From a virus, in the IMG/VR virus record IMGVR_UViG_3300045988_164547, positions 1 to 33,165 of that record: a stretch of DNA of 33,165 nucleotides; one strand, written 5' to 3'. The translations under genes and the position numbers were made by a program. Numbering within the stretch: position 1 is the first letter of the stretch; every line of letters starts with the position of its first letter. Below are positions 27,262 to 28,721 of this stretch, piece after piece. The notes below the pieces were generated by a model. That model saw only the letters and a program-made list of their open reading frames with translations, was not told the origin of the DNA and did no database searches.

Positions 27262-27516
27262 ATGGGTGGAAGAGGAGCCTTTTCAACATCGCATCCAAAA
27301 ATGCTTAAAATCAACATACAGCTTTTTGCTCAAAAGCGTACTACAATTTCTCTTCCCAAGAAAGAATATGGGAAAATCATTAGAGAAATTGACGATTTAT
27401 ATTATGCTAAATATAAAGACAAAAGCACATTTTTGCACTATTCGGGAAATCATGTATATAAAGTGAGAAACGGTGGGTACAACAGCTATGAAATACTCTC
27501 AAAAGAAAAGCTCTGA
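27262..27516 (+). CDS. GGRGA-tag small protein A (contains an internal L27-leader-like MLKINIQLFAQKR)
   Basis: MGGRGAFSTSHPK-MLKINIQLFAQKR... An alternative start is ATG 27301. Confidence 0.55.
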   Translation: MGGRGAFSTSHPKMLKINIQLFAQKRTTISLPKKEYGKIIREIDDLYYAKYKDKSTFLHYSGNHVYKVRNGGYNSYEILSKEKL

Positions 27517-27832
27517 AAACGAACGGCTTAATCAATTAAGGGAAATGCTTATAAGCGTATCAGATAGCTATGATTATTTTGTTTTAGGCGTTATAGCCGA
27601 TTGCAAACGGTCTAAAAAGAAATATCCCGAAAAGTGTTCCAATGTAACAGAGCAGATTATTGCATATATCGAAGAACATCCGAAAGCAAAATCAAGCGAA
27701 ATAATTGAATACACATCTAACTGCTGTGGTCTTCCGTGGGGAGACGATGAAGGGGTTTGGCATAGATGGAATGAGATTATTACAGAAGAACAAGCAAAGC
27801 AAATCGTCCAAAGGGAGTATTGCGACAACTGA
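27488..27832 (+). CDS. Hypothetical 114-aa protein overlapping the end of cassette A (possible cognate partner)
   Basis: ATG 27488 (MKYSQKKSSENERLNQ...). A terminator follows immediately. Confidence 0.5.
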   Translation: MKYSQKKSSENERLNQLREMLISVSDSYDYFVLGVIADCKRSKKKYPEKCSNVTEQIIAYIEEHPKAKSSEIIEYTSNCCGLPWGDDEGVWHRWNEIITEEQAKQIVQREYCDN

Positions 27833-27837
27833 CGCCT

Positions 27838-27870
27838 AAAACCGTTGATTGTCTGAGCCAGCGGTTTTTA
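27838..27870 (+). terminator. Intrinsic terminator after cassette A
   Basis: AAAACCGTTG / CAGCGGTTTT stem followed by a T-run. Confidence 0.6.
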
Positions 27871-27903
27871 TGACTAAAACAGTAAAAGGAAAAGAATGAT
27901 TTT

Positions 27904-28299
27904 ATGGGCGGAAGAGGAGCAAGTAGCGGAATATCAGGTAAGGGTATTCCTTATGGGAAAGAATATACATCCGTTTTAACAAGCGGCAATATAAAATTTG
28001 TTAAGAAAAACAAAGGAGCCGCTTCGGCACCATTGGAAACAATGACAAAAGGACGAGTGTATGTTACATTGGGAAGCGATAAAACTCCTCGTTTTATTTC
28101 TTATTACAGCAAAGAAAACAAAAGGACAAAAACCATTGATTTGAAAAGTCCTCATGATGATGTGATACCCCATGTCCATCATGGTTATACACATAACGAA
28201 AACGATACACCCAAGGGATATGCCAACTTAACGGCAGAGGAGAAGAAAATGGTTGACAATGTAAAAAAAACATGGGATAATTACATTGGCGATAGGTAG
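27904..28299 (+). CDS. GGRGA-tag small protein B
   Basis: MGGRGASSGISGKG... His-rich C-terminus (PHVHHGYTHNE). 131 aa. Confidence 0.65.
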   Translation: MGGRGASSGISGKGIPYGKEYTSVLTSGNIKFVKKNKGAASAPLETMTKGRVYVTLGSDKTPRFISYYSKENKRTKTIDLKSPHDDVIPHVHHGYTHNENDTPKGYANLTAEEKKMVDNVKKTWDNYIGDR

Positions 28300-28382
28300 T
28301 AGTATAGGATGAGTACGCTTCCATCGTGTTGAGGCCCCGGTGGAAATCCGGGCGCCTATCGCTGTAAATATACTTATTGTTT

Positions 28383-28412
28383 ACCGTTGACTCAACAGTC
28401 AGCGGTATTTTT
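28383..28412 (+). terminator. Intrinsic terminator after cassette B (homologous to the terminator at 27838)
   Basis: ACCGTTGACT / AGTCAGCGGT stem, 4-nt loop, then ATTTTT. Confidence 0.65.
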
Positions 28413-28433
28413 ATGCCCAAAAGGAGAATGACA

Positions 28434-28721
28434 ATGCTTAATATAGAGTTACAATATTTCGGTGGCAGAGGAGCAACAAGCAGTACCGCTAAAGGCAAGT
28501 CTTCCTTAAAATATTTTAAGGAAGCTGCGAGACAGTTTAATGAAGCAAAAATAAGCGCAAATAAGGGTAATTATTACGCCCTCGAGTATACACACGCAAA
28601 CGGTGAAACCATAACATACTATTCACAGGGTAATGGTAACTTTGAGCAAAAAGAAAGTCTTATGGAAAAAACACACTCTCGGCGCAAGGGCACGCTCAAA
28701 GCAAGCTATACCAAACAGTAA
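28434..28721 (+). CDS. GGRGA-tag small protein C with an L27-propeptide-like leader
   Basis: AAGGAG RBS 7 nt before ATG 28434. MLNIELQYF-GGRGATSSTAKGKSS... Confidence 0.6.
   Translation: MLNIELQYFGGRGATSSTAKGKSSLKYFKEAARQFNEAKISANKGNYYALEYTHANGETITYYSQGNGNFEQKESLMEKTHSRRKGTLKASYTKQ

Follow-up and report, generated by a model that had tools for sequence, protein, structure and literature searches.

A short N-terminal Gly-Gly-Arg-Gly head shared by diverse phage proteins and its association with DUF4417 genes

Three genes with a common N-terminal head

The 33,165-nucleotide (nt) virus record IMGVR_UViG_3300045988_164547 of IMG/VR, analysed over its whole length and referred to here as the window, carries a tandem array of three small genes, A, B and C, whose products share a short peptide at or near the N-terminus, here called the GGRG head. 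All three are encoded on the plus strand. Open reading frame (ORF) A (27262-27516, 84 amino acids (aa)) begins with MGGRGAFSTS, ORF B (27904-28299, 131 aa) with MGGRGASSGIS and ORF C (28434-28721, 95 aa from the ATG at 28434) with MLNIELQYF-GGRGATSS, the same coordinates and N-termini that had been given in an original prediction made from the DNA letters and their reading frames. In-frame stop codons are situated 2-6 codons 5' of the start codons of A and B, which therefore begin at MGGRG, and a longer ORF for C, opening at a TTG at 28377, has no homolog support.

Within a six-frame translation of the whole window, the pattern GG[RK]G occurs five times: three occurrences are the N-termini of A, B and C, one is the Walker A loop of the terminase and one is out of frame. 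GGRG was also considered as a coincidental match or as kin of the terminase P-loop (GGRGSxKS), and both ideas were rejected on account of its N-terminal position and unrelated context. The bodies that follow the head had been described as unrelated and, consistent with this description, in an hhalign comparison of the A, B and C families alignment is limited to the first 12-21 profile columns, corresponding to the head. The proposed conserved DNA core was also recovered, as GGNGGNAGAGGAGC is found in A, B and C. The codons beneath it vary over 316 relatives (GGC/GGT/GGA for Gly; AGA/CGT/CGC/AGG for Arg), so that the conservation of the head is at the level of protein; every one of the four Gly codons occurs, as do five of the six Arg codons, one of them in a single case. 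A megablast search of the region against GenBank phages returned no match.

A class of GGRG-headed phage proteins

On sequence grounds, A, B and C are members of a large class of phage proteins defined by this short N-terminal peptide. The set pooled from all loci holds 316 non-identical heads in 67 body clusters, with the head consensus G-G-R-G-[A/G/S]-S-S-G (G 100, G 98, R 100, G 100, A 76, S 62, S 77 and G 70%), and in these proteins a flexible linker joins the head to an interchangeable body. Eighty IMG/VR loci around homologs of B contained 25 unrelated families starting with MGGRG, and an unbiased DNA-pattern scan of IMG/VR with ATGGGNGGNAGAGGNGCNNNNAG returned 33 body families with good Shine-Dalgarno (SD) sites and very few spurious matches.

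The bodies of these relatives include several recognised effector domains. Those assigned by Pfam are ADPrib_exo_Tox (a VIP2-like ADP-ribosyltransferase (ART)), Gln_amidase (a Tox-PL1 deamidase) and DUF6883, which is a BECR-fold ribonuclease (RNase) family according to the title and abstract of a 2026 preprint. Other bodies show weak matches to zincin-like peptidases, and a JAB-like family bearing an HxHP motif has no Pfam match. Small ORFs lacking the head are found directly 3' of Tox-PL1 members (6/8) and of three DUF6883 members and, from this placement, could encode immunity proteins; B, C and the ART and zincin members are not followed by such an ORF.

DUF4417, the partner gene

The gene preceding A (26221-27255, plus strand) encodes a 344-aa protein that matches the Pfam family DUF4417 (PF14386) over residues 153-331 (E-value 1.1e-75; 253.6 bits against a cutoff of 28.9) and also matches ParB_N (E-value 3.5e-10), a ParB-like N-terminal domain to which DUF4417 is often fused. 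This gene is the conserved partner of the GGRG-headed genes. Of the 150 GGRG genes in pattern-selected IMG/VR loci, 135 are accompanied by DUF4417 within 5 kb, its median position being 531 bp upstream, and for 11 of the remaining 15 less than 1.4 kb of upstream sequence is available, which is too short to look for it. The reciprocal search gave a similar picture, with a GGRG-head ORF no more than 3 kb downstream in 60 of 72 DUF4417-anchored GTDB loci and upstream in only three of the 72. In the GTDB loci the GGRG ORF usually starts within 30 bp of the DUF4417 stop codon, abutting or overlapping it, and most of the exceptions bear variant heads such as GSRG or GGRN. Among the taxa represented are Clostridia, Streptococcus, Limosilactobacillus, Veillonella, Coriobacteriia and Bifidobacterium. 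Overall, the pairing spans Clostridia, Streptococcus (phage A25), Actinobacteria and Cluster A mycobacteriophages, and the hosts of the phages concerned are gut, oral and mycobacterial.

The original prediction had pointed to the neighbouring terminase and MuF genes and had not singled out DUF4417; the defining partner is the DUF4417 gene directly upstream. GGRG genes do lie in the late, packaging-head region, at the head of the late operon just upstream of terS/terL or between the portal and MuF genes, but their strongest link is to DUF4417.

The DUF4417 family displays many invariant polar residues (H, DD, Y, PDFS, Y, D, N and R), the kind of conservation that an enzyme or a dedicated binding site would show. 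A comparison of 12 members with Pfam at E-values up to 10 revealed no consistent second family. On two contigs from Bacteroidales metagenome-assembled genomes (MAGs; L273 and L280), the gene immediately after DUF4417 is terminase-like and a head-tagged ORF is missing, an arrangement from which DUF4417 may act without GGRG partners in some lineages. In the Christensenellales phage NatCom_6392 (L299 2438-4102), a pair composed of DUF4417 and a head-tagged ART is located away from the packaging module, after the major tail protein gene; its head is the variant MGTRGSSS, and a 115-aa ORF comes next. Rare sequences (P0206 and P0244) in which ParB_N, alone or with the beginning of DUF4417, is joined directly to the C-terminal two-thirds of B contain neither the DUF4417 core nor the GGRG head, and are apparent deletion fusions of the neighbouring genes.

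Named phages and their gene starts

Several named phages carry the module, often with the head concealed by the annotated start codon. The B homolog of Streptococcus phage A25 is gp23 (L207 8001-8411), encoded between DUF4417 (gp22) and terS. Its RefSeq start (MSDKG) is nine codons too short, the true start being MGGRGASSG. DUF4417 further matches 507 phage records in INPHARED, 385 of which are Mycobacterium phages. Gene 1 of mycobacteriophage D29 encodes DUF4417, and the frame of gp2, annotated from nt 1318, is open from an ATG-GGC-GGA-AGA-GGA at nt 1063, giving a product that begins MGGRGSAGSGG and continues into a Gly-rich linker (L290 1063-2097). As the start of gp2 has been called downstream of the head, the annotation of D29 gene 1 probably extends too far at the 3' end. 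Similarly, the ART gp2 of Gordonia phage Waits (L294) is annotated from MFDSFF with MGGRGSGGGG lying upstream, and the head is also present on Steamy gp2 (a "peptidase" with the motif HELGH), AbbyPaige gp3 (a VIP2-like ART) and Gabriela gp118.

In D29, which encodes a portal, a protease, a scaffold and a capsid protein, MuF is lacking, so the tag does not depend on it. The original prediction had also proposed that the small proteins are "short-form" partners of the MuF toxins. The link to MuF is not general, given the MuF-less module of D29 and the finding that A, B and C carry none of the domains that define a MuF toxin when present on the same polypeptide (PF04233, PF06152, MuF3 or MuF4); for want of such a domain, the GGRG class falls outside that definition. 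The two groups draw on common effectors. In Cluster A mycobacteriophages and in phages of Gordonia, the VIP2-like ART family bears the GGRG head and is encoded next to DUF4417; elsewhere it is fused to MuF or to a capsid maturation protease, and such fusion of the ART was taken by the authors of PMC7302621 to imply association with the virion.

Leader forms and the Prp-type site

The head occurs in two forms. Of the 316 non-identical heads, 292 follow the initiator Met directly and 24 follow a leader with the consensus M-x-x-[ND]-[LI]-Q-x-F↓, the leader-bearing relatives showing xxNLQ(F/Y)F↓. Both forms exist within the B family, where MGGRGASSG alternates with M(L/I)xINIQxF-GGRGASSG, for example MIKINIQRF↓GGRGASSG. 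Among the loci gathered here, leaders were found in contigs labelled Firmicutes, with the exception of one MAG labelled Alloprevotella (L224).

The leader resembles the substrate of Prp, a host cysteine protease that trims ribosomal protein L27 as well as the capsid and scaffold proteins of phage 80alpha, with the cleavage motif MLxx(D/N)LQ(F/L)F'A(S/H)KK (PMC9405229; PMC5744158). The motif is matched by C (MLNIELQYF↓GGRG) and by A (MLKINIQLF↓AQKR), with Gly rather than Ala at the P1' position in GGRG forms. An initiator Met that precedes Gly is expected to be removed by Met-aminopeptidase and, given the match of the leader to the Prp motif, the Met-start and leader-start forms would expose the same free GGRGA end. 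From this convergence we infer that the head is the mature N-terminus of both forms, generated by Met-aminopeptidase or Prp.

A different arrangement is seen in the JAB-like (HNHP) effectors, in which GGRG is internal (L010 9367-10173, L038, L054, and L295 3572-4318 from S. pneumoniae phage IPP52_00029) and lies behind a conserved 65-75-aa domain at the N-terminus (..VFPVEF↓GGRGSGSG, ..INFTL↓GGGRGANF).

The bodies of A, B and C and their exchange

Cassette A is composed of the head (27265-27279), a short spacer, a Prp-type site with the sequence MLKINIQLF↓A (27301-27330) and a 60-aa body. The internal leader had been regarded as a recombination scar. This view could not be maintained, as the order of head, variable spacer (up to approximately 40 aa), INIQLF↓A or INxQ(L/F)F, and body is kept in all homologs; the leader, a conserved L27-like Prp-type motif, is therefore a functional element of the family. 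A 114-aa ORF (27488-27832, plus strand) overlaps the 3' end of A and is inherited together with it, being present with A in three relatives (L001/L004/L005) and absent with A from four (L002/L003/L007/L008). It is possibly an immunity or partner protein for A. Neither A, C nor the 114-aa ORF has a significant match in Pfam, PHROG, NCBIfam or PADLOC; a match of A to C2_CAPS (E-value 0.002) is below threshold and spans the head and leader only.

Cassette B couples a GGRGASSG head to a conserved β-rich body. Its C-terminus is indeed His-rich, as had been noted, but is more than a tail, since it contains the conserved motif PHxHHGYxHxE. B matches phrog_9479, a family with no assigned function, over its full length (E-value 1.1e-46; residues 1-131 against positions 1-134 of 136) and is the commonest GGRG protein; clustering at 90% identity yields more than 1000 groups and clustering at 50% yields 493. 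An AlphaFold2 (AF2) model of B has a predicted local distance difference test score (pLDDT) of 80, with residues 1-7 disordered. This model has no match among PDB structures (best E-value 0.66), and in BFVD no match reaches an E-value of 0.001. One BFVD match does stand apart from the rest, a 148-aa "Glycosyltransferase" from an uncultured siphovirus (E-value 0.019, probability 0.97, template modelling score 0.40, 18% identity). The B-family profile has no significant match to PDB sequences (best E-value 0.57).

Cassette C is composed of the L27-like leader MLNIELQYF (28434-28460), the GGRGA head (28461-28475) and an 80-aa body. In close relatives it always occupies the final position of the array, 5' of the terminase, and always has the leader; distant homologs (L100/L202/L210) have either the leader or a Met start. 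A role for B or C as the small terminase subunit was rejected, as A25 and Str01 have a separate terS after the B homolog and the large terminase subunit (TerL) of the window bears an N-terminal extension of its own.

The slot between DUF4417 and C is variable among eight near-identical relatives (L001-L008). Some contain A, the 114-aa ORF and B, some contain B only, and one contains an MGGRGQ-DUF6883 gene with a 57-aa ORF; L006 is where alternative cassettes are seen. Collinsella genomes likewise encode different GGRG proteins downstream of near-identical ParB-DUF4417 genes. The B-only relatives join the upstream flank of A (46/46) and the A-type head ATGGGTGGAAGAGGAGC to the body of B (62/63), which places the breakpoint inside the 17-nt head and bears out the earlier suggestion of recombination at the conserved 5' motif.

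The combination of one head with differing bodies had further been read as the organisation of polymorphic effectors or toxins, a reading strengthened by the relatives with ADPrib_exo_Tox, Tox-PL1 and DUF6883 bodies. The GGRG class has both the architecture of polymorphic systems, a conserved N-terminal region on unrelated C-terminal bodies (316 proteins in 67 clusters, by hhalign), and their exchange of cassettes by recombination at the conserved part. Recognised toxin domains are those of some relatives, with none matched in the three proteins of the window, and candidate immunity genes likewise accompany only some members, the 114-aa neighbour of A being a possible case.

A proposed tag for effector delivery

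The preferred explanation, held at a probability of roughly one half, is that the head is a tag read by DUF4417, which routes the tagged effectors into the virion for delivery with the DNA. Met-aminopeptidase or Prp would free the Gly-Gly-Arg-Gly end, which the co-encoded DUF4417 protein would recognise as an adaptor or as an enzyme that modifies the N-terminus. DUF4417 would then direct the tagged proteins into the assembling virion, and the effectors (ADP-ribosyltransferases, deamidase, RNase, peptidases, and A, B and C) would enter the next host together with the DNA. New bodies are swapped in through recombination within the 17-nt head. Such a system would constitute a trans-acting alternative to fusing an effector to MuF or to a capsid protease. 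Tag reading, processing, packaging and injection are all proposed steps. More tentatively, and with distinctly lower probability, DUF4417 may be an unrecognised enzyme or adaptor that specifically reads the free Gly-Gly-Arg-Gly end and brings the tagged effectors, by loading or by covalent attachment, into the head or onto the end of the packaged DNA. This would be a general trans-acting "cargo-tag" system of phages infecting Firmicutes and Actinobacteria, D29/L5-type mycobacteriophages among them, and of some Bacteroidales-binned contigs.

A number of observations weigh against routing into the virion. The DUF4417 profile has no match at all among PDB sequences, and a single-sequence AF2 model of ParB-DUF4417 is unusable (pLDDT 32). 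Searches of Pfam, PHROG functions, NCBIfam, PADLOC and the PDB recognised no toxin domain in A, B or C, and neither B nor C has an immunity-like neighbour. In family A the Prp-type site is 3' of the head, so that the predicted cleavage would split the tag from the body; this arrangement fits a removable targeting peptide only if cleavage comes after targeting. Among 21 heads from genomes of at least 60% GC (e.g., L270-L287 and L290), 14, that of D29 included, encode the Arg with AGG or AGA. These codons are normally rare in such high-GC genomes, and their excess, which could stem from codon bias near the start, from horizontal origin or from a constraint on the nucleotides, hints at the last of these. 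Finally, the Cluster L mycobacteriophages (L291/L292/L298) have DUF4417 and a head-tagged ART among tRNA genes near the right end, far from the packaging genes, and in the only relevant virion proteome found, the mass spectrometry of Str01, neither the B homolog (APZ81907) nor DUF4417 (APZ81899) was reported, a weak negative given its low depth and the 12 proteins that passed its thresholds (PMC6195288).

The last two observations also favour the first of three alternatives, all of which are ranked below routing into the virion. The GGRG proteins could act late and inside the producing cell, as effectors of host takeover, anti-defence or superinfection exclusion, with DUF4417 modifying or activating their N-terminus (for example, the Arg or the free Gly amine) or acting as their chaperone, and with nothing packaged. 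This account is possible but carries only about half the weight given to the tag. The synteny of DUF4417 with the head and its invariant polar residues suit an enzyme-substrate pair equally well, and both the location of the Cluster L pair among tRNA genes and the missing B homolog of Str01 agree with it. However, a cell committed to lysis has no obvious gain from ART, RNase or deamidase toxins, many phages have the GGRG genes nested between portal and MuF, and the ART family is fused in other phages to the virion-internal MuF and capsid protease (PMC7302621).

A second and unlikely alternative is that the GGRG proteins are polymorphic toxins freed upon prophage-induced lysis to act against competitors, for which the head would serve as an uptake or secretion signal and DUF4417 as a helper or protective factor. 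An analogous proposal has been made for the MuF toxins (PMC5576092), and both the cassette polymorphism among near-identical prophages and the toxin domains followed by putative immunity ORFs (Tox-PL1 and DUF6883 members) are in line with it. The head, however, is an 8-residue Gly/Ser-rich peptide that lacks a module for translocation or receptor binding, nor was a signal peptide seen. D29, moreover, is a lytic derivative, to which the protection of prophage kin would not apply. Many of the bodies, including the commonest, B, are not recognisable toxins and have no immunity genes. Least probable by far is a head that is mainly a nucleic-acid feature with no peptide role, such as an SD-like "downstream box" or a translational-coupling or recombination sequence at the DUF4417 stop, for although the core GGNGGNAGAGG is SD-like, AGR is preferred at the Arg even at high GC, starts usually abut or overlap that stop and recombination does take place in the head, the Gly and Arg codons vary while the amino acids are invariant, leader forms keep the motif 8-13 codons after the start, conservation reaches A-S-S-G, good SD sites already lie upstream of the ATG, and second and third cassettes away from DUF4417 (here B and C) keep the head.

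Should the head indeed be a tag read by DUF4417, eight residues and one accessory gene would explain how many temperate and lytic phages deploy interchangeable toxins and enzymes without structural fusion. These phages would range from A25, a transducing phage of S. pyogenes, and the prophages of pneumococci and gut Clostridia to hundreds of mycobacteriophages of Cluster A. Prp, a ribosomal protease of the host, would be linked to the maturation of phage effectors, and a portable tag for placing engineered cargo into phage particles is suggested. DUF4417 gains a testable role from this proposal, phrog_9479 and dozens of "hypothetical" families gain a context, and systematic errors in annotated start codons are flagged. 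The system is open to direct testing in tractable phages, among them D29, L5-type phages and A25.

Relation to known systems

One close parallel is provided by the MuF toxins (Jamet et al. 2017, PMC5576092; Zhang et al. 2012, PMC3482391), which are likewise phage-borne, combine a conserved N-terminus with variable C-terminal effectors and are encoded in the packaging/head module. Their repertoire overlaps that of the GGRG class (ART, Tox-PL1 and BECR RNases), and some members have putative immunity ORFs. The constant part of a MuF toxin is a MuF domain of 250-350 aa, whereas that of the GGRG class is an 8-residue peptide with a separate conserved DUF4417 gene, found also in MuF-less phages such as D29. 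The polyvalent proteins and other head-packaged effectors (Iyer et al. 2017, PMC5512222), together with the Dar proteins of P1, similarly contain ART, zincin peptidase, BECR RNase and ParB-like domains, and their delivery with the DNA early in infection is inferred, as it is for the GGRG class. They differ in being one giant polypeptide or an anchoring fusion, as opposed to small separate tandem genes with a common N-terminal tag.

Two further systems are alike by analogy, in having an accessory gene upstream or a short N-terminal element on variable effectors. In type VI secretion systems (T6SS), the adaptor or chaperone genes (DUF4123, DUF1795/Eag and DUF2169) are found directly upstream of variable effectors with a short N-terminal recognition element. 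In phage T4, an N-terminal peptide steers internal proteins into the prohead, and this targeting sequence is cut off by the prohead protease. Neither system has sequence or established structural kinship with the GGRG class, whose head appears to be the mature end.

With respect to processing, the leader of C and the internal site of A match the motif of the Prp substrates (L27 and the 80alpha capsid and scaffold proteins; PMC9405229, PMC5744158) on non-homologous phage proteins, a situation already noted for other phages. In contrast to these substrates, most GGRG proteins have no leader, P1' is Gly, the family A site is internal and after the head, and cleavage is here a prediction. Lastly, the VIP2-like ART genes of Cluster A phages (SEA-PHAGES; PMC7302621, PMC10586128) include members of the class itself, the annotated gp2/gp3 toxins being GGRG-headed proteins encoded after the DUF4417 "nuclease" gene 1/2. 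These annotations name only the body, with no mention of the head, of the peptidase and other alleles or of the link to DUF4417. No description of the head or of its link to DUF4417 was found in the literature on GGRG, DUF4417, MuF N-terminal motifs and VIP2-like toxins, and there is a substantial chance that the mechanism proposed for DUF4417 and the tag is itself new.

Genomic setting of the array

The window is a prophage-like genome, with Ruminococcus sp. as its probable host. The local gene order is an ArpU-like regulator, ParB_N-DUF4417, A, the 114-aa ORF, B, a hairpin, C, TerL, portal and MuF. The regulator (25668-26084, plus strand), an ArpU/RinA-like late transcriptional regulator (phrog_36, E-value 3e-19), marks the start of the late region. 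It is followed, 5' of the DUF4417 gene, by a terminator-like hairpin (26178-26200, plus strand) detected by a consensus scan as a 9-bp stem with six GC pairs and then a T-run. A further terminator-like hairpin with a T-run (28382-28407, plus strand) lies between B and C, directly before the ribosome-binding site of C, and the same intergenic region (28300-28433) contains a second GC-rich hairpin at approximately 28332-28356. The intergenic hairpin sequence is kept upstream of C in L006 despite different upstream cassettes, and this element may function as a transcription attenuator or have a connection with the packaging site. Rfam returned no match on the window.

TerL (28731-30371, plus strand; Pfam Terminase_3, E-value 8e-22) has an N-terminal extension of approximately 110 aa (28731-29060) whose residues 2-109 match phrog_2412, a family of unknown function, and in which basic residues abound (GRKGGIASGEARRKKK). 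No separate small-terminase gene is evident in the window, and the extension may represent a fused TerS-like DNA-binding part. The portal protein (30355-31689, plus strand; phrog_533, E-value 1.5e-42) is followed by a MuF-type minor capsid protein (Phage_min_cap2, 31682-33165, plus strand; PF06152, E-value 1.9e-53) that is cut by the window end; the full-length copy is found in L001 (13249-14892), and the protein has 547 aa in relatives. Its C-terminal extension of approximately 150 aa has no Pfam match and holds a D...E-x-K-like pattern (SDYIW...FWELK); it could be a nuclease-type effector domain. Downstream of MuF there is no obvious small ORF, but a 250-nt non-coding gap before the scaffold gene. 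The window opens with genes for scaffold (526-1086) and major capsid (1109-1975), which in L001 come after MuF, and it is thus a circular permutation of the phage genome cut inside the MuF gene.

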